A program made the position numbers and the translations under genes. The notes below the pieces were generated by a model. That model was not told the origin of the DNA. It ran no database searches and saw only the letters and a program-made list of their open reading frames with translations. Positions 1 through 45,168 of a stretch of DNA of 45,168 nt are shown one piece after another; position 1 is the stretch's first letter; the number at the start of each line of letters is the position of its first letter. The stretch is from a virus. The stretch lies in UHGV virus genome UHGV-0041136; one strand, written 5' to 3'.

Positions 1-304
1 ACAGCTTAATAATTGGGATAGTGACGCCGATGTGTAAGGCGAAGCGGGCCAGTGACGGGGGTTTATCCTGAATCAGTGGGCGTTCGTCGCCCTTAGACGT
101 AGGCACAAGTTCCCATGACGTGCGGTCGAAGAACTCGATTAACGCATCGCAATAGTCCGGGTCCCACAACGCGGCGGAATTACGGGATGATTGATAAAGG
201 CTCTGTTTGCCGCGTGGTCGTTTACGGCGACGGTTTGCGCTAACAGCTTCTTCATGTGCAGCTTGCACCACCTCTGGCGATGGCTGCTTGAGTTTCAGCT
301 TCAT
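1..304 (-). CDS. terS: terminase small subunit, N-terminal part (runs off window start; continues in frame at window end)
   Basis: ATG at 304..302 preceded by AAGGGGA; frame open to position 1; translation MKLKLKQPSPEVVQAAHEEAVSANRRRKRPRGKQ...DKPPSLARFALHIGVTIPIIKL has a basic N-terminus and HTH-like segment; lies just upstream of terL across the junction. Confidence 0.5.
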   Translation of the reverse strand, partial: MKLKLKQPSPEVVQAAHEEAVSANRRRKRPRGKQSLYQSSRNSAALWDPDYCDALIEFFDRTSWELVPTSKGDERPLIQDKPPSLARFALHIGVTIPIIKL

Positions 305-321
305 AGAATCCCCTTGCGTAT

Positions 322-363
322 GCGTCTGACCATCAGAGCGCATCAGACGCGCCCTACGCGTCT
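322..363 (-). repeat. repeat cluster in terS 5' leader (GCGTCTGA, CATCAGA x2 spaced 10 bp, TCAGACGC inverted copy, ACGCGTCT)
   Basis: read directly: tgcGTCTGAccATCAGAgcgcATCAGACGCgccctACGCGTCT between a TATAAT-like hexamer (375..370, minus) and the terS ATG. Confidence 0.4.
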
Positions 364-403
364 AAATGGATTATATAAGGGGATTGGGCGGGATGTACAG
401 AAA

Positions 404-421
404 AGCCCTCCGTAGAGGGCT
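404..421 (-). terminator. stem-loop AGCCCTC-cgta-GAGGGCT followed on the minus strand by TTTCTGT; candidate terminator separating the leftward small-gene operon from terS
   Basis: 7-bp perfect stem, 4-nt loop; U-rich tract only moderate. Confidence 0.35.
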
Positions 422-523
422 TGTATCAGTTATATAGGCCGTGTCGCGGTGCTCTTTTACCGTCGCCGCCGTAATGGTCGTTAGCTACGGCGATAGCCCA
501 GGCGTTGGAGATTATTAGTAGTC

Positions 524-703
524 TCATTTTAAGAATCTCAACAGGGCGTCCGCGATACCAGACGCCACTAGCCCGAAAAACATAGGCCACCAGATATATC
601 CAGGCAGATTGGTAAATGTTTCTGGCTTAGTACAGAAAGCCAGTAAAAACGCGAACCAAAACACCACGTAACTGATGTTGTTAATTAATTCTAAGATAAT
701 CAT
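524..703 (-). CDS. small hydrophobic protein (59 aa, about 2 predicted TM segments)
   Basis: ATG at 703..701 overlaps the upstream TGA (ATGA coupling); translation MIILELINNISYVVFWFAFLLAFCTKPETFTNLPGYIWWPMFFGLVASGIADALLRFLK; below the ORF-track size cut-off. Confidence 0.3.
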   Translation of the reverse strand: MIILELINNISYVVFWFAFLLAFCTKPETFTNLPGYIWWPMFFGLVASGIADALLRFLK

Positions 704-936
704 TCCCCGCTCTCCCCTTTAGCAATGCGTTGCTCTGTTTTAGTGATACCACGGCGCGTGAATAACACCGGGCTTGTCTTAACGTGTGTCATCAGACGGT
801 TGTTATAAATTACGTGGCGCTCACAATCAACGTCTTTGCTGTACTTCGCAATCGTCATTTCGTTGATGCCAGTTTGTCGGCATGTCTCGGCCATCGTGCC
901 AAATTCTTTAATCAGGTTCGGAATGCTGGTAATCAT
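700..936 (-). CDS. small HTH-like protein
   Basis: track ORF 700..960 begins at GTG; in-frame ATG at 936; segment AETCRQTGINEMTIAKYSKD resembles a helix-turn-helix. Confidence 0.4.
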   Translation of the reverse strand: MITSIPNLIKEFGTMAETCRQTGINEMTIAKYSKDVDCERHVIYNNRLMTHVKTSPVLFTRRGITKTEQRIAKGESGE

Positions 937-1092
937 CCTAAGAAATTCCTTGTTGTCCACATCGCATTCGGATATTTGTTATCGCGGTCCTGCACTACGG
1001 CAACCATGTTCCCACGTTGCACCAGGCAGAAGTGCCGTTGTTGCTCGCCGTTGTAGCGACGCCAGATTGCCTCTTCGATTGCGGCGTTGATG

Positions 1093-1353
1093 TCACTGAA
1101 CATACCCGATACCCCACATAACTAACATCCCAACCGCTACACCAATCAGAATTGATACAGTGGTATTCGTCCACACCCGTTGGCTACGCAAAGTTCCTGC
1201 GTTCTCCAGAATGTCGCGAACACGCGTTAAGTGTTCAATCTCCAGTCTCGCGGCTATCAGTTCCTGGGATGCTTTTGAATACTTACAGTTAATCTTATCA
1301 AGCGCCTTCTTAAGGTCTTTGTTGTTCTTCTTGATTTGTTCAATCTGTTCCAT
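1093..1353 (-). CDS. tail-anchored membrane protein (N-terminal coiled coil, C-terminal TM helix)
   Basis: ATG 1353 with GAGGTAG SD; C-terminus TTVSILIGVAVGMLVMWGIGYV is hydrophobic; N-terminus is heptad-like and charged. Confidence 0.5.
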   Translation of the reverse strand: MEQIEQIKKNNKDLKKALDKINCKYSKASQELIAARLEIEHLTRVRDILENAGTLRSQRVWTNTTVSILIGVAVGMLVMWGIGYVQ

Positions 1354-1355
1354 AA

Positions 1356-1538
1356 CTACCTCACTATCTCATCGCCAAGCCACGCCGTTTCTCGTATATC
1401 GTCGACCACACAGGCGGCGTGCTCACGGCTAATTGCAAAAATGTAGAAGCTGAACTTCTTCCCGTCGGCGTCGATGTGGTTAACCGAGTAGGGTTTCCAC
1501 AGGACGCCATCGATAACTACTGGCTCAGGCGCTTTCAT
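1356..1538 (-). CDS. hypothetical protein
   Basis: ATG 1538 overlaps stop of an upstream 47-aa ORF; coding-like composition. Confidence 0.4.
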   Translation of the reverse strand: MKAPEPVVIDGVLWKPYSVNHIDADGKKFSFYIFAISREHAACVVDDIRETAWLGDEIVR

Positions 1539-1669
1539 TCTTCATGCGCTCAAGTAACAACTTAAACGCCTCCAGTTGAAACTCACCGTTAATCGACAAT
1601 TGCCCGCCTAACGTCTGTTTCTCCGACTCAAGCACCATAATACGGCGCTCAAGTGATGCGATTGTGATT

Positions 1670-1855
1670 TTAGGCATTTGTGTCACCTTTGTTCAGGTTG
1701 AAGCGGTTAATTAGCTCACGGCGTGTCTCGTAAAGCGACTCGACCATTTGCTCAGCTACTGCGATTTTAGTATTCAGGACGTGCATCACATGGCTGATGT
1801 CTACGCCGCTGTTAACCGCCTCTACCATCATCTTTTCGTATTCACGGTCAGTCAT
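1670..1855 (-). CDS. hypothetical protein
   Basis: ATG 1855; packed in the minus-strand small-gene array. Confidence 0.4.
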   Translation of the reverse strand: MTDREYEKMMVEAVNSGVDISHVMHVLNTKIAVAEQMVESLYETRRELINRFNLNKGDTNA

Positions 1856-2009: not shown

Positions 2010-2023
2010 TTCTTCTCTCCTGT

Positions 2024-2239: not shown

Positions 2240-2385
2240 TTCTTCTCTCCTGCATAAGCGGCTTTCAGTGCCTGCATTGCAGCGGACCAGAACGCGTCCG
2301 CGGGAATGCTGTTGCTCAGGTTACTAACGGCGATGCGTGCCATCAGTTGTGCGTCTTCGAATGCTTCGATATCTGTGATTTTCAT
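2236..2385 (-). CDS. hypothetical small protein (49 aa)
   Basis: ATG 2385 with AGGAG SD; [49 protein letters not shown]; stop overlaps next ATG. Confidence 0.3.
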
Positions 2386-5306: not shown

Positions 5307-5504
5307 TTACACCAGCGATGGCGGCTCTGGTAACGGCATCCAGTGGGTAACATCGTCACTACTGATATTCGAGTTACGCGGCGCCCAACAATCCCAGAAG
5401 CCATCGCAATCCCGCCACATCACCTCAACGTTACCCCCATCCGAAACCAGCACATCTTCAAATTCTTCCGGCATCCGTTCACTACACTCAATCCACTTAC
5501 CCAT
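5307..5504 (-). CDS. DUF551-like small protein, copy 1
   Basis: MGKWIECSERMPEE...VTHWMPLPEPPSLV; WMPLPEPP C-terminus as I recall for DUF551 phage proteins. Confidence 0.5.
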   Translation of the reverse strand: MGKWIECSERMPEEFEDVLVSDGGNVEVMWRDCDGFWDCWAPRNSNISSDDVTHWMPLPEPPSLV

Positions 5505-5514
5505 ATCTCACCCC

Positions 5515-5700
5515 TTATTCATCACACTTCAGAGACTCAGGTAACGGCATCCAGTGTGTTACGCCAACACACTTAACGTATCCATCACAAACAAAGTCAC
5601 CGATGTATCTTGCTATAAAGCCATACCCGGCGCGGGCATAAACAATTACGTCCTCACCCTCTTCCGGCATCCGTTCACTACACTCAATCCACTTACCCAT
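5515..5700 (-). CDS. DUF551-like small protein, copy 2 (tandem paralog)
   Basis: MGKWIECSERMPEEGEDV...VTHWMPLPESLKCDE; identical first 14 residues and shared C-terminal motif with 5307..5504. Confidence 0.5.
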   Translation of the reverse strand: MGKWIECSERMPEEGEDVIVYARAGYGFIARYIGDFVCDGYVKCVGVTHWMPLPESLKCDE

Positions 5701-5850
5701 AAATCACCTCTGATTCGCGATAAACAACACACCAGCTTTCCACGCCCGCCACGCGAGACGCGTCTTAACGTTCAGGTACTCTTTCTTCGAACCCTTGTTA
5801 ACCGGCAGACCCTCGACGACGGCCCACCGTTCAAATGCTTCTCTCATAAC

Positions 5851-6433: not shown

Positions 6434-6467
6434 AACCCTCACTCCTCTGTCTCGTTCCGATAAGTGA

Positions 6468-6496
6468 ATAGTATCCTATTATGTTGGGGTGTGCAA
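6468..6496 (-). promoter_or_regulatory. conserved promoter element, minus strand (-35 TTGCAC, 17 bp, -10 TACTAT) with AATAG-N4-CTATT
   Basis: plus strand gtgAATAGtatcCTATTatgttggggtGTGCAAg; near-identical to the element at 30060..30089 in reverse orientation. Confidence 0.5.
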
Positions 6497-6568
6497 GAGA
6501 ATAGTTACGTTGCCGTTGTGATTCTTCAGGGAGGGTTGTGCCTTTATTCTTATTACTTGGTAACTAAA

Positions 6569-9860: not shown

Positions 9861-9888
9861 GTCAATTACTCCTTAGTTAGTTGATATG

Positions 9889-9905
9889 TGAATAGTACCA
9901 TATTA
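9889..9905 (-). promoter_or_regulatory. operator copy (AATAGtaccATATT) overlapping the extended -10 (TGgTACTAT) of the regulator promoter
   Basis: minus strand reads ...aatatggTACTATtcacatatc...AAGGAG...ATG. Confidence 0.45.
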
Positions 9906-9924: not shown

Positions 9925-9953
9925 TTGACATAATGAATAGTTAGCTATTATAG
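9925..9953 (+). promoter_or_regulatory. class II promoter: -35 TTGACA, operator AATAGttagCTATT overlapping -10 (TATTAT/ATTATA)
   Basis: cccaTTGACAtaatgAATAGttagCTATTatag, 35 nt upstream of ATG 9986; same arrangement at 12629..12656. Confidence 0.5.
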
Positions 9954-18858: not shown

Positions 18859-18899
18859 AGAAAAGGCCCCGTTTGGGGCTACTTTCAGGAGCAAATACA

Positions 18900-19220
18900 A
18901 TGAAACGTATTACCGCAATTGCAATCACTCTGGCCGCTGTTCTGGGCTGCTCGTATGTGGGGTCCGCCGCTGCCGTCACTCCGGTCGAAATGTGCCAGGA
19001 GCTGGCCGAAATGGGAGGCGTTATTGTCGACGCCCGCAACCGTGGCGACTCGCTGGAAAACGTAACCAGCATTATCAACGGCAGCGATATGACCCCGAGC
19101 CTTAAAGCGGGCATGACGCGCATCGCCATTACGATCTACAGCAATCCGTCGCTGAAACGCGCCGATGTTGTGGCGTATGGGTTTAAGGGCTGTATCGACG
19201 GAATGTCGGAGGATATGTGA
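18900..19220 (+). CDS. putative lipoprotein / secreted protein
   Basis: ATG 18900 with AGGAG SD; signal peptide MKRITAIAITLAAVLGC with lipobox-like VLGC. Confidence 0.5.
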   Translation: MKRITAIAITLAAVLGCSYVGSAAAVTPVEMCQELAEMGGVIVDARNRGDSLENVTSIINGSDMTPSLKAGMTRIAITIYSNPSLKRADVVAYGFKGCIDGMSEDM

Positions 19221-19388
19221 AAAACTGGAAGTGGTCTTTCAAATGGTGAAGTAGGTTTGACCTACTATTTGCCTTGTATATTGGGCATTTAATAGAAAAA
19301 TACCATCCAGAGCTTACAACTGACAACATGTTAAGAGTGGCGGTGATTTTCTTTATTGTAATCGGCATAAATATTCGGGGTAAGAGAA

Positions 19389-19757
19389 ATGACTGAGAAA
19401 GAATTACGCAAAGCCGCGCTCTTATATTTGGAAATGGCTGCGCTATCCTGCGCCAGGGGTGCGTACTACGATACGCTAAGTGGTTACAGAACATACATTA
19501 TAGGAGCCACACTAAGAGACGGAGGGGCGCGTACAGATAATCACGCTGATAATATGTTCCAGGCTGAAGAGAATGCCAGAAAAGCATTACAATCCTTAAT
19601 TGGAGAAAGAACGATATCAGTATTTGAAGAACATCATGGCGCAATCAGGGTAACTATTTGGCATGGCGAAAAATTAATAGGGCATTATTCTATTGAACAA
19701 AAATCCGTAAATGTTTTTGACGGTGAACCGCTAACTGCGGAAGGCGAACAAAAATGA
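19389..19757 (+). CDS. hypothetical protein
   Basis: ATG 19389; lies in AT-rich accessory segment. Confidence 0.45.
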   Translation: MTEKELRKAALLYLEMAALSCARGAYYDTLSGYRTYIIGATLRDGGARTDNHADNMFQAEENARKALQSLIGERTISVFEEHHGAIRVTIWHGEKLIGHYSIEQKSVNVFDGEPLTAEGEQK

Positions 19758-19965
19758 CTGAAGAACAACTGAAAGAGTGCGAGGCATAAGCAAACACCAT
19801 GTATACGTATCTACTGATAGGATTTGTGTTCTATTTGTGGTCAATATTACGTTGCCCAATAGCATTCTCAATACCCGTGAATATAGTGTTAATGATAATC
19901 TACACAATATTTTACCCTTTTATATTGTTATTCGCTGCGATAGCGCGATGCAAGGAGATATTGAA

Positions 19966-20223
19966 ATGACAAAATTAGTAATTCGCAAGAAAGAAGCACA
20001 ACCATGTGTGTTTATATTTCGGGCTGATGGTTCTTGTTACACTGAGTTGTTGCCCGGCATGGCGCCATCGAATCTTGACGTTGACCATATTAGCATTACT
20101 GGCCCTTACGATGCCGATTTGCTGAGAAAAGCTGCATACTTCGCCAATCTCATAGCTTGCACCGAAAAATTAAGAAGTAATTTTAATGAGTTGGGCTGCG
20201 ATATAGAGGTTATTTGTAAGTGA
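19966..20223 (+). CDS. hypothetical protein (85 aa)
   Basis: ATG 19966 with AAGGAG SD; track ORF from GTG 19777 extends through AT-rich non-coding-looking DNA. Confidence 0.4.
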   Translation: MTKLVIRKKEAQPCVFIFRADGSCYTELLPGMAPSNLDVDHISITGPYDADLLRKAAYFANLIACTEKLRSNFNELGCDIEVICK

Positions 20224-20226
20224 AAG

Positions 20227-20248
20227 ACGGGGCGTGACAGCGCCCCGT
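20227..20248. terminator. bidirectional hairpin terminator at the junction of the replication and structural modules
   Basis: ACGGGGCG-tgacag-CGCCCCGT 8-bp stem between convergent gene ends. Confidence 0.5.
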
Positions 20249-20255
20249 GTTAAAA

Positions 20256-20558
20256 TTAAATTACATCTTCTGTGTTCGCAAAATCCGGCAAAGTTCGAAG
20301 ATGCGCATAAGCCTGGTCTATTAAGTTAACTGTGCTATTCCAGTCCGGTGTAAATTGTACAGACTTGAAAACACCAGGCGCTGTTTCATCAACAATGTTA
20401 AAACCGTTAGTCTCAACGATCCATAAATCAGAGAGAAACACATCAAGACTAACAGAATTAACACTTCCTCTGAAAGTCTGGATGATGGCATATTTATAGC
20501 TAACATCACCATTTGAGGTTGTTGCATTAAAGGCGCCCTTAAGTGCTTTAATTGCCAT
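20256..20558 (-). CDS. hypothetical protein, last gene of structural operon
   Basis: ATG 20558 with GGAGGA SD overlapping the tailspike stop. Confidence 0.5.
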   Translation of the reverse strand: MAIKALKGAFNATTSNGDVSYKYAIIQTFRGSVNSVSLDVFLSDLWIVETNGFNIVDETAPGVFKSVQFTPDWNSTVNLIDQAYAHLRTLPDFANTEDVI

Positions 20559-20560
20559 AA

Positions 20561-22936
20561 TTATTCCTCCAGCGTATAACGCCATTGTGGGTTGGTTACG
20601 GTTCCGCTGGTAAGCGCAAATGTAACTTGTTCCTGGTATTTTAACTCAAGATTTATGTTATGTGTACCTACGGCAGTTGTCTGGAACACCGGAAAACCGT
20701 TTTTATTAACAGAGCATGAGCCTCCGCCGGATGGAATTGTTACCGACACGAAGTATTTCCCTGGACGTCGGAATGAGTAACTATAGGTGCTGCCGTCTGT
20801 CGGTATTTGCGCTGTGCCGTTATCGTGTGACGCCTCTCGCATCGCAAAAGAAGACTGCGACCCATCATTGGTGTAGCGCACACGGCAGAAGTCCGTTTGA
20901 CGGGTGCGTACCTTACCCAGCTGGTTTTTGTTCGCCAGGCGAACAACATAGTTTGTGGTATTACCCTCTAATTTGGCATCTTCACCAAATGATACAGTGC
21001 CAGTTGCACTGGTTGAAGCCACAGACACAATAGCAAGATTAGCCTCGGATTCCGACCCATAGCCCGCATGAACATTGTTTGTCCAGCAGTTCCAGTAAAA
21101 TTTAAAATCACCGCCGACAGTTGAATCAATTTCAATTGGGGGTGTGCAAGCCCATCCAAACTGGGAAGCGTTAAGATTCTGAGCAAAACCACTCTTAACG
21201 AAAATTCTGCTCGGATCTCCAGTAATCGCCTGGCGCTGCCCTCTATACTTAAGCTTGCTTAAGTCGTTTGTCATCAGGAAAAGCTTTGATACATCCCAGC
21301 AGGTAAGATGATCTATAGTCAGTTGAGAGTTAAACCCTACGCGTGCGAAACGCCCGGAGTTTTGAGCATGGACACCGCCCATGTGCACCTCTGAGTTACA
21401 AATCTCCAGCGCATAAAGATCATCGGTCTGGTTAGACGCTGCCCACGTGGTATTGCCACAGATAGCGATATGGCGGTTCATATGAACGTTGCGGCAGTCC
21501 CATATAGCTAGATGCCCTATACCACCTGCGCCAATTAAAATATTTTCCAGAGATAAAGTTCCGCATTCACTAAATACCAGGCCACCTGATTTTTCATTGT
21601 GGGGCACGTAATCTTCAAACGTCATCGTTAAATCATAACAGTTAGAAATATACCCATACGTGCGGTTATTTTGCGTCCACACCGAATGGAAATGGCCCAT
21701 ACCAGAACCAGTATTTGACAGCTTAAAGTCACGACCGCAGGTTTTGATATTGAAGGCCGCTTTACCAACGTTCTGGATTGATGGTAGGACAGAGGTAAGA
21801 TCTGGCCATTGGGCTGTTACTGCTGAGTAGTCTGATTTACCTGTACTGAAAAGCACGGTGCCAGGGTAGTTTCCTACCTGAACATCAAATTCAGGAGCAT
21901 TCACCATTGACTCTAGCCGTAGAATATAGTTTGTGTCTACTAACGATGCTATTTGAGTATCGGTATAATTGCCAGTTCTAAAAGCTATCTGCGTATTATC
22001 AATGCGAAGTTTGAATAGCGGATTATTGGCTTGCACGACAAAAAAGCCGCCATTCTCACCAATAGCAAAGTTGCCGTCTATTCCGAAACGATCTCCACCA
22101 CCAGAAGCAGGAAGCATCCACGATAATGATTCAGGAAATGTACCACAGCGGATATAGTGACGTTGTGCAAGATATACCGTGCCAAAATCAAGACCCTTAA
22201 TAATGCTTTGTGGGTATCCAGAATTAGATAATGACGCGGCTGCTTTTAAACAATTTTCAAATGCCGCATCTTGTGCTGCTGATGTTTGAAACTGATTTTT
22301 TGCACCAGCCCAAGCCATACGGATTTCATTATTTTCAAATGACCGCTTCCATAAACGGCCAAGACCATCACGAAGATGGACGCAATCATCGTCGGGTGTT
22401 GTAGTATCCCCATCTACCCGAAAAAATACGCCTTGCGCCCCATCGTATGACGCGGTTCTACCCCCGCAGAAAATAGATTTTAAAGGACCGTTGTATGCTC
22501 TGATTGCCGAATAGAAAGGCTGGCCGAGGAGCGACAGACCGGCGGTTCCCGATAATTCCTGCCGTAAAAGCTGGTCCGTTCTTGGTTTCCAGTTACTATC
22601 CGCGGTCGGGTCTGTCCCCGGGCTAACAACATGCGGCAGCGCCCCGGCCCATGAGTACCAGTTATTGTCCGCTGGGTTAAAAACCACAGTATCGCGTGAA
22701 GATACCGTGCCCCCGGTGGTGAAATCAAAAGACGCAGGGTCATAGCCTATGTCCCGTAGAATAGCGGGCAAAGTTTTTTGTGTTTGCCCGGTTACCTGGT
22801 TGGTGGCAAAATCTATAGGAGACCCTGACGAAACTCCGCCAGTGAGTCCAGTGATAACTTCGGCCTCAAAGGTCTGGTGCTTCTTGGCCGTTTTCAGATC
22901 TTCCAGCGATAAGACGTCGCCGCATCCGCTTGACAT
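20561..22936 (-). CDS. tailspike protein (conserved N-terminal anchor, probable beta-helix depolymerase body)
   Basis: 791 aa; ATG 22936 with AAGAGGA SD; G/N/S/T-rich repetitive core typical of beta-helix tailspikes; position after the J-like gene. Confidence 0.6.
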   Translation of the reverse strand: MSSGCGDVLSLEDLKTAKKHQTFEAEVITGLTGGVSSGSPIDFATNQVTGQTQKTLPAILRDIGYDPASFDFTTGGTVSSRDTVVFNPADNNWYSWAGALPHVVSPGTDPTADSNWKPRTDQLLRQELSGTAGLSLLGQPFYSAIRAYNGPLKSIFCGGRTASYDGAQGVFFRVDGDTTTPDDDCVHLRDGLGRLWKRSFENNEIRMAWAGAKNQFQTSAAQDAAFENCLKAAASLSNSGYPQSIIKGLDFGTVYLAQRHYIRCGTFPESLSWMLPASGGGDRFGIDGNFAIGENGGFFVVQANNPLFKLRIDNTQIAFRTGNYTDTQIASLVDTNYILRLESMVNAPEFDVQVGNYPGTVLFSTGKSDYSAVTAQWPDLTSVLPSIQNVGKAAFNIKTCGRDFKLSNTGSGMGHFHSVWTQNNRTYGYISNCYDLTMTFEDYVPHNEKSGGLVFSECGTLSLENILIGAGGIGHLAIWDCRNVHMNRHIAICGNTTWAASNQTDDLYALEICNSEVHMGGVHAQNSGRFARVGFNSQLTIDHLTCWDVSKLFLMTNDLSKLKYRGQRQAITGDPSRIFVKSGFAQNLNASQFGWACTPPIEIDSTVGGDFKFYWNCWTNNVHAGYGSESEANLAIVSVASTSATGTVSFGEDAKLEGNTTNYVVRLANKNQLGKVRTRQTDFCRVRYTNDGSQSSFAMREASHDNGTAQIPTDGSTYSYSFRRPGKYFVSVTIPSGGGSCSVNKNGFPVFQTTAVGTHNINLELKYQEQVTFALTSGTVTNPQWRYTLEE

Positions 22937-22948
22937 ATCAGAATCCTC

Positions 22949-25504
22949 TTATGAAAAACCGTTGCTGAATCCGTCGGAGAAACCGCGACCTAAAGGCGCG
23001 ACACCGTCGTATTTGTAGAAATCTTCATCGTAGTTGTATCCTGTAATCTTAACTGTGCGGTCATCGCCCGGGGCGATTGAAGAAACAACTATCTTCTGAG
23101 CATTATGCCTTGCTTCGTTGCCAAATGAAAACTCAGTTTTTAGCGCACTATTCCCTGTGTAGATTGCCTCCTCCGGCGCAGAGAGCATAATCACCTCGCG
23201 GTCGTGGCCTCCTTTGATAACTGAGATGCTTTGTACTGAGCCGTCGCGCTTCTTGAGAATGATGGAATGGTCGTCACCGGGGGTAAACATAACAGGCTGA
23301 GACAGCGTAAGTGTAAGCCCATTAACGGCGACAACATAGCCATCCTGTGGCGCGATACGTGAGCCCTTAACTACGCTGATTACCCCGCCGGGAGTAGCGA
23401 GAGCGCCTTCTTCGGTAGCCTCAAACTCTACGACAACTTTACTTAACGCATTGCGCTGGTAGCGGCGCCACGCTAACCAATAGGCCTGTTGGTAGTTTCG
23501 CACACCCTTCGATTCGTATTCCTCGGTGTTTGCGCCGAGTTCTTCTGGGATATAAATAGTTTCCTGTACGTTCGTATCAGGGTCGATGTACGAGAATGAC
23601 AGACTATCGTAGGTTGTCGAATCGTTGAACGTACGGGACCATTTCTCCGTCCCGGTAGTTTTGCTGCGGTGGGTGAACACCATCTCTGGTCCAGCGACTG
23701 GGCGGTCGAATCGCAGCATAATATCTGCGCCTTTACGGTACGCGGTGCAGAACACGGCTTCCGCTATAGTCTGAACGATGTCCTGCATCGTGGTGTCGTA
23801 GTCGTCGAACGTGTAGCAGAACTGCCCTGCCAATTCACTTCCGAAATAGGACTCAATTTCTTCCTGCACGGATAGTAACTTATCCATGTTTGACGTTGTC
23901 AGTTCCAGATTACCAACTGCGGGGTCGCGGGCCAGTCTGATTAGCGACTGCACCGCCTGCGTATTAGGTGTCATTACCGTAGCGAATACACCATTACCGA
24001 GATATTTGTAGCACATCTCGGTTGCAATCATACGCAGTTCCGGGTTATCGATACTGGCGGCCCGCGGCGTCTGTTTACGCGCGCAATGCACGGTAGTTCT
24101 GTTGCCGTAGTGGGGGGTAGTGTCCAGTGACTGCCCATACAGGTTGGTGAAGGTTATCTCGTCACTTACCGTACCGTCGAAATCTTTATCAGAGTTACTA
24201 ACCCGTCTAGCTCTTACGCGGACCCTGCTTGCCATTGGAAGGTAGCCGTAGGCGCTTGTTCCAGTGTAATCGGTGTTGCGACCAGTTACTACAACCCGTG
24301 TCGTGTAAATATCGCCAATCGGCTGTCTTTGTTCGTTTACTGCTTGAAATTGCAGCTCTATCGTGGCGCTTGCAGTGCTGTAGCTGCCGTTGTAACGGTA
24401 CATGCCGTTTGCCCCTGCAAAGTTGGCCAGGACTCGGTCAACACTTCCTCTGGTGATGTAGTACCAGTCTGTTAGCGACTTGTTGTATGTGTCCTGCGGG
24501 CGCATAGAGTTCTCCGCATCGTTGCCGCGGATAGCGTAGCCGACGGCAGCGTTCCAGTCAGATGTACGCCCTGTAATATCCAGTGTCACCGTATTTTCTG
24601 ATACGTCTAAAACCTGGTAATATCCGGTAAGGGACACGTTGTTTGTCGTCCACATAGGGTCGCAAACTACGATGTCACCTACGGATATATCTTCACTAAA
24701 ATCTACCGCTGACGAAGTTTCGGTAAGAGTGCCCGTGTTGCCAGATACAGATACGAATGCGGTTTCACCGTCAAAAACTACGCCTAAATCATTAGGCGCC
24801 TTAAGCACAACACCGTCAACGTCATCGTTCATAAAAGTAACGTATAACCTTTGATTTATAACGTCGCCGATTTGCAGTTGCGGTGTAGCTGTGTTGTTGG
24901 GGGAAGTGTACGGCGCGTACACGGCAACGGACGAGCCAGTAATATCACTAATCCTTGTATCACCTTCAGTAACACCATCCGCTTCGATATGCAGATGCCC
25001 GCGCCCTGCGTCGTAGTACGAATACTCCAGCAAAGCGCCCGTGGAGTTAAACGCCTTGTACGTCTGCATCAGGTCATTAGGAATTGTCTGTACAGTCCCG
25101 CATATGTCATAAGAGCGTTCGTAAGGGCGCGGCTTGTTGGAACGGTCGGTAAGGCTGTTGTTCGGTGACGTTGTCTGATTGTTAGTCGCCGTGTAGTCGG
25201 CATTAGGTGCCCTGTTAAGACCAAACAACTTAGCGATTGGCTTAAGGATAAAACCAAACACCTTCCCAATAGCGTTACCTATCCCGCCGCCCGCACCCTC
25301 GATAATGTGATATACAGCGTCTTCATCTTTAAGTGCGTCGAAGTCGTCCGTTACGTCGGTATCGTCACCAATCTCACCGAGGTAGACGCGCACCGGCACG
25401 CCGTCGGGGATACGGTTAATGACAAACTCCATCGGCATCCCGACGTGTTTTGTATGGTCGAAAGCCCCGTCGGCATTTCGCGTGTAGTGCAGGATTATCG
25501 CCAA
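22949..25504 (-). CDS. central tail fibre / tail tip protein (gpJ-like position)
   Basis: 851 aa following K/L/M-like genes; TTG start at 25504 with GGAG SD (alternative ATG 25438). Confidence 0.55.
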   Translation of the reverse strand: MAIILHYTRNADGAFDHTKHVGMPMEFVINRIPDGVPVRVYLGEIGDDTDVTDDFDALKDEDAVYHIIEGAGGGIGNAIGKVFGFILKPIAKLFGLNRAPNADYTATNNQTTSPNNSLTDRSNKPRPYERSYDICGTVQTIPNDLMQTYKAFNSTGALLEYSYYDAGRGHLHIEADGVTEGDTRISDITGSSVAVYAPYTSPNNTATPQLQIGDVINQRLYVTFMNDDVDGVVLKAPNDLGVVFDGETAFVSVSGNTGTLTETSSAVDFSEDISVGDIVVCDPMWTTNNVSLTGYYQVLDVSENTVTLDITGRTSDWNAAVGYAIRGNDAENSMRPQDTYNKSLTDWYYITRGSVDRVLANFAGANGMYRYNGSYSTASATIELQFQAVNEQRQPIGDIYTTRVVVTGRNTDYTGTSAYGYLPMASRVRVRARRVSNSDKDFDGTVSDEITFTNLYGQSLDTTPHYGNRTTVHCARKQTPRAASIDNPELRMIATEMCYKYLGNGVFATVMTPNTQAVQSLIRLARDPAVGNLELTTSNMDKLLSVQEEIESYFGSELAGQFCYTFDDYDTTMQDIVQTIAEAVFCTAYRKGADIMLRFDRPVAGPEMVFTHRSKTTGTEKWSRTFNDSTTYDSLSFSYIDPDTNVQETIYIPEELGANTEEYESKGVRNYQQAYWLAWRRYQRNALSKVVVEFEATEEGALATPGGVISVVKGSRIAPQDGYVVAVNGLTLTLSQPVMFTPGDDHSIILKKRDGSVQSISVIKGGHDREVIMLSAPEEAIYTGNSALKTEFSFGNEARHNAQKIVVSSIAPGDDRTVKITGYNYDEDFYKYDGVAPLGRGFSDGFSNGFS

Positions 25505-29952: not shown

Positions 29953-30059
29953 TCTTTAATCCTTTGGTTAAGAGGTTACAGGTTAAGGAAAATGCGCCAG
30001 ACGGGAACCACCCGCTTTTCGTGTGCGACACTAGGCGCAAACTTATTCTAGCACACTAC

Positions 30060-30089
30060 TTGCACACCCCAATATAATAGGGTACTATT
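30060..30089 (+). promoter_or_regulatory. conserved promoter element, plus strand (-35 TTGCAC, 17 bp, -10 TACTAT) with AATAGggtaCTATT
   Basis: cTTGCACaccccaatatAATAGggTACTATTcac, 28 nt upstream of ATG 30117. Confidence 0.5.
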
Positions 30090-30116
30090 CACCTGTAACT
30101 TACTGAGGAAATAATT

Positions 30117-30443
30117 ATGCGTAAATTAGTATTAGCTCTGGGGTTTATGTCTTTTGCTACTTTTGGGTCCCCGTGCGAACAGGTATTTAGTGAATCTGTT
30201 CTTATGGCTTCTGGTGCGCTTGAGAAAGCCGACCCTACTATTGTAAAGGCATTTAAGGACTCTACAGTTCGCGAGTGTGAGGCCGCCGTAGATGTCGGTA
30301 AATCGGGCCTACCCCCGCAAGCCGTAACATACACGGTAGTACGTTCGGTAGAGCAAAACGGAGACGCGTTTTATAGCCTACTGACAGCCACCCGTCTGCA
30401 AATGGTGATGACTGGATGGGCGATAGGCGCGGAAAGTAAATAG
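30117..30443 (+). CDS. secreted small protein (signal peptide)
   Basis: MRKLVLALGFMSFATFGSP... cleavable signal-like N-terminus; first gene of cassette A. Confidence 0.55.
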   Translation: MRKLVLALGFMSFATFGSPCEQVFSESVLMASGALEKADPTIVKAFKDSTVRECEAAVDVGKSGLPPQAVTYTVVRSVEQNGDAFYSLLTATRLQMVMTGWAIGAESK

Positions 30444-31889: not shown

Positions 31890-31908
31890 ATCGCGATAGG
31901 AGATAATT

Positions 31909-32397
31909 ATGGATTGGAATGAATTTTTCATATACGACTTAATTTCAGGAAGGATATTTAACAGAGTAACACGGTCCGGGAGGGCTAAGGCTGGAGAGGA
32001 GGCGGGTACTATACAGCGAGACGGATATAGAAGGATATTTTTCAGAGGCAAATGGCACGCGGCGCACCGTATAGCATGGGACTTAAACAATCCTAACGAT
32101 AAGCTAACGTCGTCAGATCAAATAGACCATCTAGACCATAACCGAATAAACAATAGACCGCTTAACTTAGCTAAAAAGTCCAATGCGGAAAACCATAAAA
32201 ATATGTCAAAACAGCGTAATAATAAATCAGGAGTAACTGGGGTTTACTGGAATGCAAAAGAAAGGTTGTGGTATGCACAGATATTCAACAATAACGTAAA
32301 AACGCATATAGGGTGCTTTAAGACGCTACTAGATGCAGTTGCCGCGAGGAGAGTTGCTGAAAGAGATTTGGGGTTCCACAATAACCACGGCAAATAG
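31909..32397 (+). CDS. HNH homing endonuclease with AP2-type DNA-binding domain
   Basis: HNH core GKWHAAHRIAW...IDHLDHNRINNRPLNL...NH; C-terminal GVTGVYWNAKERLWYAQIFNNNVKTHIGCFKTLLDA resembles AP2; AT-rich codon usage. Confidence 0.7.
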   Translation: MDWNEFFIYDLISGRIFNRVTRSGRAKAGEEAGTIQRDGYRRIFFRGKWHAAHRIAWDLNNPNDKLTSSDQIDHLDHNRINNRPLNLAKKSNAENHKNMSKQRNNKSGVTGVYWNAKERLWYAQIFNNNVKTHIGCFKTLLDAVAARRVAERDLGFHNNHGK

Positions 32398-32399
32398 TA

Positions 32400-35376: not shown

Positions 35377-35889
35377 TTAACCCCGGTACACGTTAAATGA
35401 GAAGCCATTGTTAAGACCGCCACACAGTAACGGGCGTAAGGCGTCGTCGGCGGCAGTAATAGCTGTAGTAGCGCCACTGTTGCCGTTGTTGAAGTACGTC
35501 ACTGTCACCGCGCCCTCGACACGCTCAGTCTGCACGGAGCGCCCATCAGAGTTAGCCCGAACCTCAGTACCCGCGCCATATGTAGCGGCGGCAGTTACCT
35601 GCGCAAGAATCACCTGCTTCGGGATGGCATTGTTAGCTACCGGGAATCCATTCAACGTTACACCAGTGCGAGGGTACGCCAGAGACTGTTCAGCGGATAC
35701 ACGACGACCGCACATCTGCGGCTCTGCAAGCCCGACATAAGTAGCGCCGTTTCGCAGGGCGACCTCTGCGACGGTATCGTCAGCGGGTAACTCCAGACCA
35801 TAATTAGCCGCTAACGCGCGGGCGTCGGCCAGACTAATGTAACTGTCGGCATTCGGGACGATTGCCCCAGTTTCCACGATTAGCGGCAT
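35377..35889 (-). CDS. structural / head-tail adaptor candidate
   Basis: ATG 35889 with GAGGAA SD; synteny. Confidence 0.4.
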   Translation of the reverse strand: MPLIVETGAIVPNADSYISLADARALAANYGLELPADDTVAEVALRNGATYVGLAEPQMCGRRVSAEQSLAYPRTGVTLNGFPVANNAIPKQVILAQVTAAATYGAGTEVRANSDGRSVQTERVEGAVTVTYFNNGNSGATTAITAADDALRPLLCGGLNNGFSFNVYRG

Positions 35890-39112: not shown

Positions 39113-39163
39113 TATTCCAACATTTACAATTGAGCGGAATAACTGGAATAGGTAAACAAATAG

Positions 39164-39215
39164 TTTGCAGACACCAATATAATAGGGTACTATTCAGTTA
39201 ACTTAAACAGGAGGT
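39164..39215 (+). repeat. 52-bp direct repeat, copy 1 (promoter + leader + SD of cassette B)
   Basis: identical by eye to 41828..41879. Confidence 0.6.
39165..39194 (+). promoter_or_regulatory. conserved promoter element (-35 TTGCAG, 17 bp, -10 TACTAT) with AATAGggtaCTATT
   Basis: TTGCAGacaccaatatAATAGggTACTATTcag then AGGAGG and ATG 39221. Confidence 0.5.
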
Positions 39216-39220: not shown

Positions 39221-40033
39221 ATGCAACATGTGATCAGTTTTTCAGGCGGCAGGACATCAGCGTACACAACCCTTGAAGTGCTTAAACTTCACCCCGATGC
39301 TGAGGTCATCTATATGGACACCGGGGCGGAGCACCCCAAGACCTACGAGTTCATCCGCAATTTTGCTAAGCACTTTAATATTGCAGTGACGTGCCTCAGG
39401 GTTGTTCCTAACCCGGAGATGCGTAAGGCCAGCACCTATGAAGTCCTTAGCGTAGATGAAATAGGTCCTGACCTGGAGCCATGGCGCAGAATGCTGCGCA
39501 AGTACGGCCACCCATACGTCGGTGGCGCGTTCTGCACAGACCGGATGAAGACGGTGCCGTTCACCAAATACTGTGACGAGAAATACGGTAAAGGCAAATA
39601 CGACAGATGGCTTGGCATCCGCTGTGATGAACCTAAGCGCCTGGTAAACAGGAAAGAGGGGTTCCACTATCTTGCAGACATCAGCGACTTCGAAAAACAG
39701 GACATTATTGACTGGTGGGCAAACCAGGAATTTGACCTTGGTATAGAGGAGCACTTGGGTAACTGTGTTTTTTGTATTAAAAAGAGCCTACAAAAAGTAG
39801 CACTGGCCGCTAAGGATGAACCACAGTTGGCTGAACAATTTTGGGAAATGATTCAGGAAGAAGACATAAAGCGGGATAAGGTTATGTACCGGTCCAACAG
39901 AAGCCTCGGCGAGGTTATCGCGCTGTTCCGGGATGAGGGTAGGGGTGAGCTTGCGTCTCGTATGCGGTCAATGCGGCAGTACGACACAGGGTCATGTAGC
40001 GAAAGTTGTGAGGCGTTTGGGGGTGGCGAATGA
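39221..40033 (+). CDS. PAPS-reductase-like PP-loop ATP pyrophosphatase family protein
   Basis: PP-loop ISFSGGRTS at N-terminus, YMDTGAEHPKTYEF, GAFCTDRMKTVPF; Cys-rich C-terminus GNCVFC...GSCSESC. Confidence 0.65.
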   Translation: MQHVISFSGGRTSAYTTLEVLKLHPDAEVIYMDTGAEHPKTYEFIRNFAKHFNIAVTCLRVVPNPEMRKASTYEVLSVDEIGPDLEPWRRMLRKYGHPYVGGAFCTDRMKTVPFTKYCDEKYGKGKYDRWLGIRCDEPKRLVNRKEGFHYLADISDFEKQDIIDWWANQEFDLGIEEHLGNCVFCIKKSLQKVALAAKDEPQLAEQFWEMIQEEDIKRDKVMYRSNRSLGEVIALFRDEGRGELASRMRSMRQYDTGSCSESCEAFGGGE

Positions 40034-41784: not shown

Positions 41785-41827
41785 ATGCCCTCCTGTGGTA
41801 TCGCCAGTGTAACGCATAAAAATAATA

Positions 41828-41879
41828 TTTGCAGACACCAATATAATAGGGTACTATTCAGTTAACTTAAACAGGAGGT
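41828..41879 (+). repeat. 52-bp direct repeat, copy 2 (promoter + leader + SD of cassette C)
   Basis: identical by eye to 39164..39215. Confidence 0.6.
41829..41858 (+). promoter_or_regulatory. conserved promoter element (-35 TTGCAG, 17 bp, -10 TACTAT) with AATAGggtaCTATT
   Basis: same sequence as 39165..39194; ATG 41885. Confidence 0.5.
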
Positions 41880-41884: not shown

Positions 41885-42169
41885 ATGTCTCACAAATTTA
41901 AAGGTACGGACGGTGAATGGGTTAATCTCGGAACAGCTATCTGGGCGGGTGACGTTTATGTGGCGGAGGTAATGAGTATGCGGGAGAAGTCCTCAGTAAA
42001 ATTGGCTAACGCAAAACTTATCTCCTCGGCGCCTGAATTACTTGAAGCCCTTCGCCAGCTTCGCGATTACGTCGAGGATGTTTGCGCTGTATCTTCCGAT
42101 GATTGTCATGAGGATCACCCATTAAATCAGGCCAGCAGAGCAATCAAGAAAGCATTAGGAAAGCAATAA
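41885..42169 (+). CDS. hypothetical protein (cassette C cargo)
   Basis: single gene flanked by conserved promoter and bidirectional terminator. Confidence 0.5.
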   Translation: MSHKFKGTDGEWVNLGTAIWAGDVYVAEVMSMREKSSVKLANAKLISSAPELLEALRQLRDYVEDVCAVSSDDCHEDHPLNQASRAIKKALGKQ

Positions 42170-42173
42170 AACT

Positions 42174-42199
42174 AAGGCCCCTTTTGGGGCCTTTTCTTT
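42174..42199. terminator. bidirectional terminator AAGGCCCC-tttt-GGGGCCTT + T-run
   Basis: between stop 42169 (plus) and portal stop 42198 (minus). Confidence 0.55.
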
Positions 42200-43667
42200 A
42201 CTCCTGTTGCTGCGCCGACTGCGGAATCTCTCCGGCCACCTGAGTAACGGCACCTAACGGCAACGGTGCATCCTCAATAGCGTTCTGAATATCCTCATCA
42301 GTCCAGTCAGTTACGCCAGCTTTACGCAATGCCGCATAGTAGGCGGTAGCGGGTAACAAGCCGGCGTTGATATCCGCCATCCACTGAGCGCGGTCCTGAG
42401 CCGTCATCGGTTGCAGGAAGAACTCCATGTTAAGTTTGAACTCAATCTCTGTGCCTTCACGCAACCCAAGCATTGCCGCCGCCCAGCGCAACGCATCAGT
42501 GTACGCCATGCTTACGTTACGTGCGATTGTCGCCATAACTGACGTATCAGCGCCGCGTTGTAGGCGGGCCGATTCAGCGGTGATTTGCTGCGTCGGGGTG
42601 ATAAGCTGCGCGCCAATCTGGATAGCCTGATTCTCTTTATCAAGCATATTTTGTTTGGCAAGGTTGTTCTCTCCCGCCTGAACCAGAAACGCATTGCCGC
42701 CGTAGCCAATGTTATGGCCTGAGCGCGACCCCATGCGCACGCCGTGGGGGTTGGCTTCTTTCCATTGCTCCATGCTCATGTTTTCACCAGGAGCGATGAA
42801 TAAAGTGGGCTGGCCTACAACGAAGCTGGACTCCTCATTGTCTGCGCTGTTGCGGAAATGCCCGATATTAAGCTCAGCTAACGGCAGCAAAGGGGCGTCG
42901 TCGATGGTAGCATCGTTGTTGCTTGCCCCAATGAACGTGAACGGGATTTTGCCGCGCAACTGTTCACCAAGTTCCGGGAAGATTTCGATTACTTCACCCT
43001 GAGCACCACCCTCGGCATCGAAGCGGTAAATGCGCTGGCGGTAGCGCCCGTCAATCAAATCGAGAACGCGGTATTGTTCGCCGAACTTGGTTTCGAACTC
43101 AGCGCCCGGTTCTGCGTATTCCCACACCTCACGCAACACGACCATCATCACACGGTTAACTGAACCGATGCGGGTCAGTCGCCAGTTGATGATGTTCTCT
43201 GCGGTGTAGAATGCGATGACCGGGTTTAATAATCCCGCGTTCTGTTCTGCCGCCGTTGCCGCTGCTGTCTCCGGCGCGTCCACCAGCAACCCGCCACGCC
43301 CTACCGAGTCAATCTCCATCAGCGTATCCTGCGCATGCTGCCACAGCCCGACACCGGAGCCGTCGGCGTTACGTAACAGGTACTCCAGTTCAGGCGGGAT
43401 AATTTGCTCGGGGTCTTTGCGCATCACTGACCCGACCATCCCCGCCAGGGTGCGTTTAGTGAAGTTGTAGCAGATAGCGCCGTTCTCGTATTCTTCCTGG
43501 CGCTGGGCGGCGTAGGTCGGGTCAGGCTCGTTCTTCCCGACGTTGCGCAGGTAACGGATGAGGTCGCCTTCCAGCGCGTGGCGGACCTTCTGCCATTTAT
43601 CGAAGTGATGCAGCCATTCCCGGTGTTTAGTCTTAACACCCTGATTCTGACCGTTCATAGTTAACAT
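42198..43667 (-). CDS. portal protein
   Basis: 489 aa immediately downstream of terL with AAGAGGA SD; size and position. Confidence 0.65.
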   Translation of the reverse strand: MLTMNGQNQGVKTKHREWLHHFDKWQKVRHALEGDLIRYLRNVGKNEPDPTYAAQRQEEYENGAICYNFTKRTLAGMVGSVMRKDPEQIIPPELEYLLRNADGSGVGLWQHAQDTLMEIDSVGRGGLLVDAPETAAATAAEQNAGLLNPVIAFYTAENIINWRLTRIGSVNRVMMVVLREVWEYAEPGAEFETKFGEQYRVLDLIDGRYRQRIYRFDAEGGAQGEVIEIFPELGEQLRGKIPFTFIGASNNDATIDDAPLLPLAELNIGHFRNSADNEESSFVVGQPTLFIAPGENMSMEQWKEANPHGVRMGSRSGHNIGYGGNAFLVQAGENNLAKQNMLDKENQAIQIGAQLITPTQQITAESARLQRGADTSVMATIARNVSMAYTDALRWAAAMLGLREGTEIEFKLNMEFFLQPMTAQDRAQWMADINAGLLPATAYYAALRKAGVTDWTDEDIQNAIEDAPLPLGAVTQVAGEIPQSAQQQE

Positions 43668-43679
43668 TGAATAATCCTC

Positions 43680-44930
43680 TTAAAGTGCGAAAGTCACCGG
43701 GATGTTGATTACGGGTTTAACCACCGGCATCTCGTAAACTACAGGATAGCCGAGAGCGTCCGCCATATGGTCAATAACGCCATCTTTAGCAGGCTCTCCG
43801 TTATCGTCATATGCCTGCTGCTCCAGCGTCTTCGCTATCTCAGGGCATAAGTGGTCGTTAACCCACAGCTTACCTTTTTCCAGTGCGGTATTCACGGCTA
43901 AAACACGGTCTTTAACCGGAGGGTTGGCAGATTTAGCGCGAACATCAAACCCGGCCTGCTGGAGTAATGCAATATCAGAGATTGATGCTGAGTTTGTCTT
44001 GCGGTTCTTGCCGCTGGCGTCCGGGTAAACGACGATGCGGTGGCCTTGTGACTTCCACTTCTCCGTAATCACTCTCACGGTGTCCGGCGTATCGAACAGG
44101 CCTTTCAGTTCTGCTACCGCGTGCCAGCCGTCTTTGCGCTGTACGTATACGGCGCTTGCGTTCTTCGTAACGTTGAAGTCCTGCCCGATGTATAGCGTGT
44201 CGCCTGGTTGGATTGTCTCTTTGCTGCGGTGCTTGCGTCGGTCATACGCGTAATACACGCTGCCGGAGGTAAGGTTGACGAACTCACCATTCAAATACGC
44301 GTTAATCAGTTGCGCGGGGTAAGTCTCGGTCAGTGAGCTAATGTAGTCAGGTGGCAGGAATCTCGCGTTCTCGTGAGTGGATGCCTGCACCATCGAGTAA
44401 CTCGGCGTCGGGTTCTCTTTGAACTTGGCGTAGACGAACTTGAACCCTTCCGGTGTCGTGGTAACGGAGATGTGGTTAATTACGCCAGGGATAACAAGAC
44501 GCATACGGGCGACAATTTTGTTCCATGCCAGTTCCGCTTTCTCACGGCTAAGTACATCGAGCTCATCCACGACAGCGGCCGCGATTTTGAAACCGACTAT
44601 CGAGCCGGGGTTATCCATCGAACGGCAGATAACGGTCCCGAGCACAGTCTTACCGCGAGTAACCACGACTTCTTTGTCACCGGATTTAACCAGCACATCG
44701 AGGCCGAGCAGGTTAGCAGCTTCCTCGAATGTCGGGTAAAAGATGTCACGTATGGCCGGGTATGTCGGGCCGAAGTAGCCCAGGCGCGTACCGGGGTGCT
44801 TGAGCATAAACGTAAGCAGGTCAAGGCAGCCGACAAACGTCTTGCCGCTACCGAAGCCGCCGACATATGCCTTGTATTTGTTATCGCAATTCAGGAACAG
44901 CGCCTGAGGGGCGGATAGCTGAATACTCAT
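43680..44930 (-). CDS. terL: terminase large subunit
   Basis: Walker A YVGGFGSGKTFVGC near N-terminus; acidic nuclease-type C-terminal half; ATG overlaps terS stop. Confidence 0.85.
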   Translation of the reverse strand: MSIQLSAPQALFLNCDNKYKAYVGGFGSGKTFVGCLDLLTFMLKHPGTRLGYFGPTYPAIRDIFYPTFEEAANLLGLDVLVKSGDKEVVVTRGKTVLGTVICRSMDNPGSIVGFKIAAAVVDELDVLSREKAELAWNKIVARMRLVIPGVINHISVTTTPEGFKFVYAKFKENPTPSYSMVQASTHENARFLPPDYISSLTETYPAQLINAYLNGEFVNLTSGSVYYAYDRRKHRSKETIQPGDTLYIGQDFNVTKNASAVYVQRKDGWHAVAELKGLFDTPDTVRVITEKWKSQGHRIVVYPDASGKNRKTNSASISDIALLQQAGFDVRAKSANPPVKDRVLAVNTALEKGKLWVNDHLCPEIAKTLEQQAYDDNGEPAKDGVIDHMADALGYPVVYEMPVVKPVINIPVTFAL

Positions 44931-45168
44931 TCCTCTACCTCGCCCATGTTCGTTGTTACGATTTTACCTACAGGCTCTGCAACACTGAAAATAATCTCGG
45001 TAGGGGTTGTTTCTTCGGTCGATTCAACTGGTTTCTCTTTGCCGAGGCCCAGCTTAGCTGCGGCAAACGTAGCAGAGATGCCGGCCGCGCCTGTCTCAGT
45101 GAAGTACGCCTCTTCCAGCGCCTGCGCGGTCTCCCAGGCTTCGGCAAATGCGGGAATCTCGCGCAGCC
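44927..45168 (-). CDS. terS: terminase small subunit, C-terminal part (starts beyond window end; joins 1..304 in frame if circular)
   Basis: minus frame open from 45168 to TGA at 44929..44927; ...LREIPAFAEAWETAQALEEAYFTETGAAGISATFAAAKLGLGKEKPVE...NMGEVEE. Confidence 0.5.
   Translation of the reverse strand, partial: LREIPAFAEAWETAQALEEAYFTETGAAGISATFAAAKLGLGKEKPVESTEETTPTEIIFSVAEPVGKIVTTNMGEVEE

Follow-up and report, generated by a model that had tools for sequence, protein, structure and literature searches.

A small terminase gene read in frame across the ends of the record of a circularly mapping Kagunavirus-type phage genome

The packaging genes and the frame across the record ends

The window, by which we mean the whole 45,168-bp stretch of phage DNA analysed here, carries its packaging module on the minus strand around the two ends of the record. 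The third gene of the module, at 42198..43667, encodes a portal protein of 489 aa (PHROG 145, 2.8e-148; Pfam DUF4055), and the second, terL, at 43680..44930, encodes a large terminase of 416 aa that matches Pfam Terminase_6N (4e-21) and Terminase_6C (4.4e-11) as well as PHROG 2. The first gene, terS, is divided between the two ends of the record, and an unbroken minus-strand ORF of 181 aa appears when base 45168 is linked to base 1. Its 5' part (1..304, minus strand) begins with an ATG at 304-302, downstream of a Shine-Dalgarno sequence (AAGGGGA), and holds 101 codons plus one base, a T; its 3' part (44927..45168, minus strand) supplies GG, codons 103-181 (79 codons) and a TGA stop at 44929-44927. 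Base 1 and the GG from the 45168 side thus make up the junction codon TGG (W102), and the joined peptide reads ...GVTIPIIKL-W-LREIPAFAEAW... across it.

The original prediction had placed a split 181-aa ORF here with TGG as its junction codon, and on joining and translating the ends all of its coordinates match, with no stop and no frame break. The ATGA overlap it described between terS and terL is likewise present at 44930-44927, where the terS stop (44929-44927) shares bases with the terL ATG (44930-44928). The joined gene aligns free of gaps with the annotated terS genes, also 546 nt long, of the Kagunavirus phages L AB-2017 (KY295896) and BUCT789 (PQ999132). W102 is unchanged in all 21 close homologs and is the sole invariant column among 65 distant ones, and a 300-nt query across the junction is found in one piece in every matching related GenBank phage record (447/447). 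Judged from the sequence, the in-frame join across the ends is far beyond chance. A longer, 194-aa terS model is proposed by some gene callers, but its ATG at -39 is present in only 9 of 41 sequences and variation there does not favour third positions; we therefore prefer the 181-aa model, the 13 added codons being non-coding.

The gene order is as stable as the reading frame: terS lies directly upstream of terL in every locus inspected, and the exact TerL sequence occurs on dozens of public contigs of 20-50 kb, each with an intact terS upstream. Ahead of terS lies a near-invariant non-coding leader (305..424, minus strand), nearly all positions of which reach 90% identity or more among 41 unique relatives. 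Within the leader lie the hairpin that terminates the operon before it (401-420), a promoter-like site with the sequence TGTACA-18-TATAAT (399-370, score 10/12) and a structured terS 5' UTR (369-305). The leader folds at -26.6 kcal/mol (z -1.97) and matched no Rfam family.

Closure of the circle and relatives

Two independent contigs run through the window's junction. The ENA contig k141_265343 is 45,172 bp long, that is, 45,168 bp plus a 4-nt end overlap, and maps onto the window as record position + 35,841 mod 45,168, running from window 35842 through the wrap to 35845; it is identical to the window in every part retrieved, including junction-crossing stretches of 7,251 nt and 22,241 nt (100.000%). 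A second contig, scaffold_599, measures 45,180 bp (45,168 bp plus a 12-nt end overlap), starts at window 35834 and shows one mismatch and no gaps in 14,200 nt across the junction (99.99%). A Logan contig ends at window 35845, and an A/G SNP lies at 35841. The public metagenome contigs are thus opened near window ~35,840 (35834..35845), about 9.3 kb from the window's own break, and since the window is continuous at 35834..35845 while the contigs run through its junction, the circle is closed. Near-identical contigs confirm 40,036 of the 45,168 window bases; positions 19,628-24,759 (11% of the circle) are backed by length arithmetic and collinearity with relatives only, and were left untiled because exact-protein look-ups with a 791-aa tailspike, an 827-aa tail protein, a 109-aa ORF and a 478-aa helicase model gave no matches.

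Rotated accordingly, the window follows the complete, circular genome of GertrudWoker_Bas73 (PQ850603) collinearly along the full length of that record, the HSPs running in order from Bas73 position 40 to 43,856 and wrapping through the junction. Together with the two contigs of 45,168+4 and 45,168+12 bp that span the junction, this bears out the earlier proposal that the window is one full genome: the seamless join and the independent contigs give a circular map with a unit of exactly 45,168 bp and no sequence missing.

The same evidence bears on a quite different reading, in which the phage has a linear genome with fixed ends at this point (cos ends or short direct terminal repeats), or the assembly is incomplete or over-long, and the in-frame join is fortuitous. 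The record is indeed written as a linear string. However, fixed ends would not be expected inside an essential gene where no terminal repeat is present, and the 45,168-bp window showed neither a direct repeat of 5-400 nt at its termini nor any long duplication within it. The junction is also contiguous in 447 relatives and, at 100% identity, in independent contigs opened elsewhere, the contigs amount to 45,168 bp plus small overlaps, and relatives have circular restriction maps (PMC10783031). We consider this reading effectively refuted and give it almost no weight.

All best matches of the window are Kagunavirus. Besides Bas73, these include M01 (OR061069), L AB-2017 and BUCT789, which share the window's gene order all the way round the circle, with terS, terL and portal genes at 90-93% DNA identity to the window's, terS again of 546 nt and overlapping terL, and genomes of 40-46 kb with a GC content of ~50%, as in the window. 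At the same time, the tailspike region at 18.9-22.8 kb and several small cassettes of the window are not shared with these phages, and most Kagunavirus records are opened, by convention, at the start of terS, whereas the window's record opens inside it. Overall similarity, roughly estimated from BLAST as aligned fraction times identity, is 0.695 to Bas73 and 0.692 to M01, the ICTV guideline for a genus being ~70% or more nucleotide similarity over the genome. We read the window as the genome of a Kagunavirus-type (Guernseyvirinae) virulent siphovirus of E. coli. The Jerseyvirus phages K47 and SeF1 belong to the same subfamily and have a homologous packaging module, with ~82-85% DNA identity in the terS region.

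The TerS fold and the mode of packaging

TerS matches PHROG 3064 (terminase) at E 9e-73, while direct sequence searches with it in Pfam, NCBIfam and the PDB gave no match, nor did a Pfam search with the 97%-identical homolog P0001. Unlike P22 gp3 and Sf6 gp1, the window's TerS and its close family fall below every Pfam and NCBIfam threshold. Remote relatives gathered by exhaustive profile search are more informative, 48 of the 65 matching Pfam PF16677 (GP3_package) and 22 matching PF20901 (Sf6 gp1), so that, at the level of sequence, TerS would belong to PF16677 only transitively; the family profile against Sf6 gp1 itself gives E 0.024. The structure of the monomer was modelled with AF2, using P0001 (97% identical to the joined TerS) as lead sequence and an alignment of the 65 sequences, and reached a pLDDT of 80, exceeding 90 over residues 60-140. 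It replaced a first model, built from 20 close homologs, which had a pLDDT of 60 and non-significant fold matches. The best five Foldseek matches of the final model in the PDB are all chains of 3p9a, the P22 TerS nonamer (probability 0.98-0.99, E 0.045-0.08, TM 0.34/0.47), and the predicted core, made up of two short strands, a helix-turn-helix and a long helix, matches that of P22 gp3. Two features set the window's TerS and its close family apart from P22 gp3 and Sf6 gp1: an additional helix at the N-terminus, which is basic (RRRKRPRGK), and an acidic tail that is disordered. Comparing the TerS family profiles with the lone P22 gp3 sequence by hhalign gave no significant match (E 0.25). The PHROG and Foldseek matches, the PF16677 relatives and the position overlapping terL all agree with the earlier assignment of the ORF as terS: it is a genuine small terminase with a P22 gp3-like fold, remotely linked to P22 gp3.

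How the virus packages its DNA is best judged from its relatives. For the Jerseyvirus K47, a restriction digest fits a circular map, PFGE gives a diffuse band and PhageTerm indicates headful packaging (PMC10783031); packaging is of the pac type in SeF1 (PMC9409062) and in Shashou (PMC6776780), and fBC-Eco01 has no termini (PMC9825357). The evidence on packaging (restriction map, PFGE and PhageTerm) belongs to K47 and SeF1, whereas the window phage is known from sequence alone. Because the relatives package by headful (pac), the virions here most likely carry linear DNA that is terminally redundant and circularly permuted and lacks fixed ends, and the window, having no terminal repeats, fits headful packaging. 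The original prediction had left the termini undefined, which accords with these observations, and its wording "circular or circularly permuted" can be narrowed, by analogy with the family, to linear, permuted, terminally redundant virion DNA. Packaging type could not be taken from likeness to the P22 large terminase, as BLASTP detected no meaningful similarity between the window's TerL and P22 gp2, and that approach was dropped.

We envisage that the phage would replicate to concatemers, on which TerS, as a P22 gp3-like DNA-recognition ring, may recruit TerL to a pac region; TerL would then make the first cut and later cuts after each headful, at slightly more than one genome length, so that each virion would hold a linear molecule, circularly permuted and terminally redundant. 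Sequence reads of these permuted molecules would assemble as a circle with no fixed ends, and a linear record of it would therefore open arbitrarily. Scanning terS for synonymous-site constraint (51 unique sequences), as might betray an embedded pac site, revealed no significant window (p 0.31); the scan showed only a 5'>3' gradient (p 0.005).

The position of the record's origin

As originally predicted, the record was linearised inside terS, the break sitting in codon 102 of what is now a confirmed small-terminase gene, and it looks like an arbitrary linearisation by the assembler. Among 447 related GenBank records none is opened within ±150 nt of the window's break, none of 50 IMG/VR loci is opened at it, and no conserved cis element was found at the break point; with no shared opening in either set, we no longer take the origin for a terminus that is widely reported. 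Against an arbitrary break, one may object that the a priori chance of falling inside a 546-nt gene is only 1.2% per record. One opening in the 300-nt span around the break is unremarkable, since ~2 random openings in a span of that size are expected among ~450 records.

The record of phage P22, a headful packager with the same TerS fold, invites another explanation. NC_002371.2 is likewise linearised inside terS, with a CDS that spans the record ends (gene 3 = join(41461..41724,1..225)), but its origin was placed deliberately at an experimentally mapped and annotated pac site (4-25), a mark that the window's origin does not bear. Conceivably, the window's record too was opened on purpose at or near the start of a packaging series, a pac terminus located by PhageTerm or a similar tool. 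Besides the P22 precedent and the Foldseek match between the window's TerS and gp3, the positions are close: in the hhalign alignment the P22 origin (L88|R89) corresponds to E105|I106 of the window, 11 nt from the break, and in a Trp-to-Trp register it lies ~17 nt away, a proximity to the P22-homologous position that a random break would reach with a chance of ~0.1% for any single record. Yet that homologous position depends on an alignment which is itself not significant, so that matching residues to the P22 pac site gives no more than an indication. Moreover, none of the 447 related records is opened nearby although several had PhageTerm analysis (PMC6776780), the break and the sequence just downstream show no synonymous constraint, with the P22-pac-homologous codons 107-114 varying freely in the scan described above, and packaging in the direction from terS to terL, as in P22, would set the record's orientation against the direction of packaging. 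We regard deliberate opening as improbable and read the nearness of 11-17 nt to the pac-based P22 origin as coincidence. That the origin is a real packaging-series terminus, with pac cleavage in the helix-turn-helix-coding part of terS, seems to us about as improbable. If true, it would mean that P22-like podoviruses and Guernseyvirinae siphoviruses have kept the same location of pac inside terS despite a TerS identity of ~20%.

With high confidence, then, we take the window to be one unit length of the circular map of a virulent Kagunavirus-type phage, opened arbitrarily in terS; the phage probably packages by headful. The split gene is an ordinary result of writing a circular map linearly and no biological oddity, and as both headful packaging and circularly permuted DNA have been described in Guernseyvirinae before, the main value of the observation lies in annotation rather than in new biology. 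Gene callers that assume a linear record may miss or shorten a terS split over the record ends, and the genome could then be wrongly scored as incomplete or as having no small terminase. Given the exact unit length, the record can be re-opened at the start of terS, like most Kagunavirus records, for clean comparison.

Continuity of the small-terminase gene across the record ends

Joining the window's last base to its first and translating across this junction (45168|1) gave neither a stop codon nor a frame break. The small-terminase gene, terS, starts on the minus strand at an ATG at position 304, with AAGGGGA just before it; the frame consumes 303 bases of the 5' part plus one more (the T complementary to base 1), completes the junction codon TGG (W102) with GG from bases 45168 and 45167, and ends at TGA 44929-44927, where the stop and the ATG of the large-terminase gene terL (44930-44928) overlap as ATGA. 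The joined product of 181 aa is identical to the translation in the original prediction, whose in-frame reading across the ends, TGG codon and ATGA overlap are all borne out. No direct repeat of 5-400 nt was found between the window ends, nor any long duplication inside the window.

Of the 185 phage records matched by a 1,000-nt junction query, every one is Kagunavirus or Jersey-like and 41 cover at least 80% of the query in one piece; a 300-nt query centred on the junction and lying entirely within terS was held as one place in all matching records (447/447). Kagunavirus L AB-2017 (KY295896) and BUCT789 (PQ999132), with an annotated terS of 546 nt overlapping terL, aligned to the joined window with zero gaps and about 13 identical bases either side of the junction.

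The window's exact TerL protein is present on dozens of public contigs of 20-50 kb. One contig, k141_265343 (45,172 bp; ENA ERZ27287544), showed 100.000% identity to the window in all stretches retrieved (7,251, 22,241 and 11,086 nt). With window position equal to record position + 35,841 (mod 45,168), it runs from window 35,842 via 45168|1 to 35,845, its length comprising 45,168 bp and an overlap of 4 nt. Similarly, ERZ28617718 scaffold_599 (45,180 bp, or 45,168 + 12) has its first base at window 35,834 and reads through the junction with a single mismatch and zero gaps in 14,200 nt. The window is unbroken where these contigs open and both are unbroken where the window opens, and therefore the map closes into a circle measuring exactly 45,168 bp. 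Through these contigs 40,036 of the 45,168 bases were confirmed, the remainder being 19,628-24,759 only.

Positions 35,834-35,845 are a break point shared by three independent assemblies (ERZ27287544, ERZ28617718 and Logan ERR7738265), and an A/G polymorphism at 35,841 adjoins it. Strain microdiversity breaking the assembly graph is the likely cause of these breaks, though a physical feature there may be responsible instead.

Packaging and the position of the record origin

Among related phages, Jerseyvirus K47 gave a restriction pattern equal to its circular map, ran as a diffuse band in PFGE and was called headful by PhageTerm (PMC10783031); SeF1 (PMC9409062) and Shashou (PMC6776780) were called pac, and for fBC-Eco01 no termini were shown (PMC9825357). 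By analogy with these Guernseyvirinae, which package by headful, we infer the same mode for the window phage, and a TerS/TerL headful mechanism is expected here because its relatives use one. TerS would recognise a pac region (the packaging-initiation site) on concatemers, and TerL would cut there once and then once per headful, yielding linear virion DNA that is circularly permuted and terminally redundant. Reads of such permuted DNA would assemble as a circle without ends to record, so that the origin of any linear record would have to be arbitrary.

The window is thus very probably the complete genome of a headful-packaging phage whose linear record begins inside terS by chance. Linearisation inside terS, as originally predicted, is correct, and the phenomenon is ordinary. 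It is quite improbable that the record was opened on purpose at the packaging start: with about 450 records in the group, one or two arbitrary openings are expected per any 300-nt span. The P22 RefSeq record NC_002371.2 is itself opened within terS, its gene 3 likewise joined over the record ends, join(41461..41724,1..225), at a pac annotated at 4-25, and is a useful precedent for judging records that begin inside terS. The window breaks 11-17 nt from the position aligning with the P22 origin, but the alignment setting this correspondence is not significant (E 0.25), and none of 447 relatives or 50 IMG/VR loci was opened in the junction region. Moreover, synonymous sites vary freely in those codons that correspond to the P22 pac site, and a synonymous-constraint scan of terS showed no significant dip anywhere (p 0.31). 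The relevance of a chance origin lies in annotation hygiene (split terS, completeness calls) and not in biology.

Identity of TerS and its upstream leader

Pfam, NCBIfam and PDB sequence searches with the 181-aa TerS returned nothing, while PHROGs placed it in phrog_3064 'terminase' (9e-73). Its close homologs are confined to the Kagunavirus/Jersey-like group, with W102 invariant among them. An exhaustive profile search gathered 503 remote relatives with a common core; of 65 sampled, 48 matched PF16677 (GP3_package, P22 gp3 small terminase) and 22 matched PF20901 (Sf6 small terminase), and W102 was the sole invariant column in their alignment. The TerS profile reached E 0.024 against Sf6 gp1. 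An AlphaFold2 model built from the 65-sequence alignment had a mean pLDDT of 80 (>90 through the core), and its five best Foldseek matches in the PDB were all chains of 3p9a, the nonameric P22 small terminase (probability 0.98-0.99, E 0.045-0.08). The gene lies upstream of terL (Terminase_6N/6C) and the portal gene. Together, the PHROG, the remote relatives matching PF16677, the fold model and gene position make the predicted terS label sound; by Pfam threshold, TerS falls outside the P22 gp3 family and is related to it only remotely.

Residues ~144-181 (window 44927-45040) occur as two unrelated C-terminal tails among close homologs with a near-identical core, ...GKEKPVESTEE..IIFSVAEPVGKIVTTNMGEVEE vs ...NKTVVAEEVRDEPISEVTIKVVSGER, a sequence pattern that suggests modular exchange of a presumed TerL-binding tail.

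Gene callers place the TerS start variously, giving 181 or 194 aa (e.g. for Bas73_0001). We rejected the 194-aa form: its ATG at -39, located in a hairpin arm, is present in only 9 of 41 unique sequences, and the 13-codon extension (window 304-343, minus strand) is non-coding, its scarce variation falling at 'codon' positions 1 and 2, not 3. Upstream of terS lies a non-coding minus-strand leader of ~120 nt (305-424), with at least 90% identity at almost all positions in 41 unique relatives and better conserved than terS third codon positions. It holds a terminator hairpin (401-420) and a promoter-like TGTACA-18-TATAAT (399-370), and the terS 5' UTR folds into two neighbouring hairpins (-26.6 kcal/mol, z -1.97). 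The leader, which matched no Rfam family, is a candidate late promoter, regulatory leader or pac recognition region.

Comparison genomes and variable cassettes

With the window reverse-complemented and its start moved to the terS ATG, it shows collinearity with the Kagunavirus GertrudWoker_Bas73 (PQ850603), a circular complete genome, over Bas73 positions 40-43,856, the latter being the final base of that record. This collinearity and the exact circle uphold the prediction of a full genome with nothing missing. A fraction of 0.79 aligns, at 88% identity (overall ~0.69-0.70), with the same figures for M01 (OR061069); what stays unaligned is the tailspike together with variable cassettes of the usual kind. 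Neither Bas73 nor M01 matches window 18,880-22,770; the minus-strand tailspike gene (20561-22936) carries a weak Tail_spike_N match. For the tailspike, a tail protein of 827 aa and an ORF of 109 aa, exact-protein look-ups found no identical product on record. Despite these unmatched products, k141_265343 is otherwise identical to the window and equal in length, and substitutions in the receptor-binding region probably set the two apart.

Within the minus-strand structural module, a promoter-like motif, TTGCAnACACCAATATAATAGGGTACTATTCA, with an RBS at its end, is repeated on the plus strand at 30048-30110, 39153-39215 and 41817-41879, ahead of plus-strand ORFs at 30117-30443, 39221-40033 and 41885-42169; inverted copies lie at 6464-6497 and 9864-9905, and related 22-mers at 9934, 12637 and 16382. 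A terminator, AAGGCCCC-N4-GGGGCCTTTT, closes each cassette (32393, 40250 and 42168), and the cassettes look moron-style. The ORF at 39221-40033 (270 aa, PAPS_reduct, 3.5e-09), inserted between head genes, is missing in Bas73 and M01 but found in a few metagenomic relatives. Another plus-strand ORF (31909-32397; 162 aa, HNH_3 endonuclease, 5.5e-06), without an aligned counterpart in either genome (alignment gap 31,891-32,398), is probably a free-standing homing endonuclease. Finally, a small minus-strand gene, DUF551-type by the annotation of a database record, is duplicated in tandem (5307-5504 and 5515-5700), with a 77-nt repeat (5444-5520 / 5640-5716) at 84% identity.
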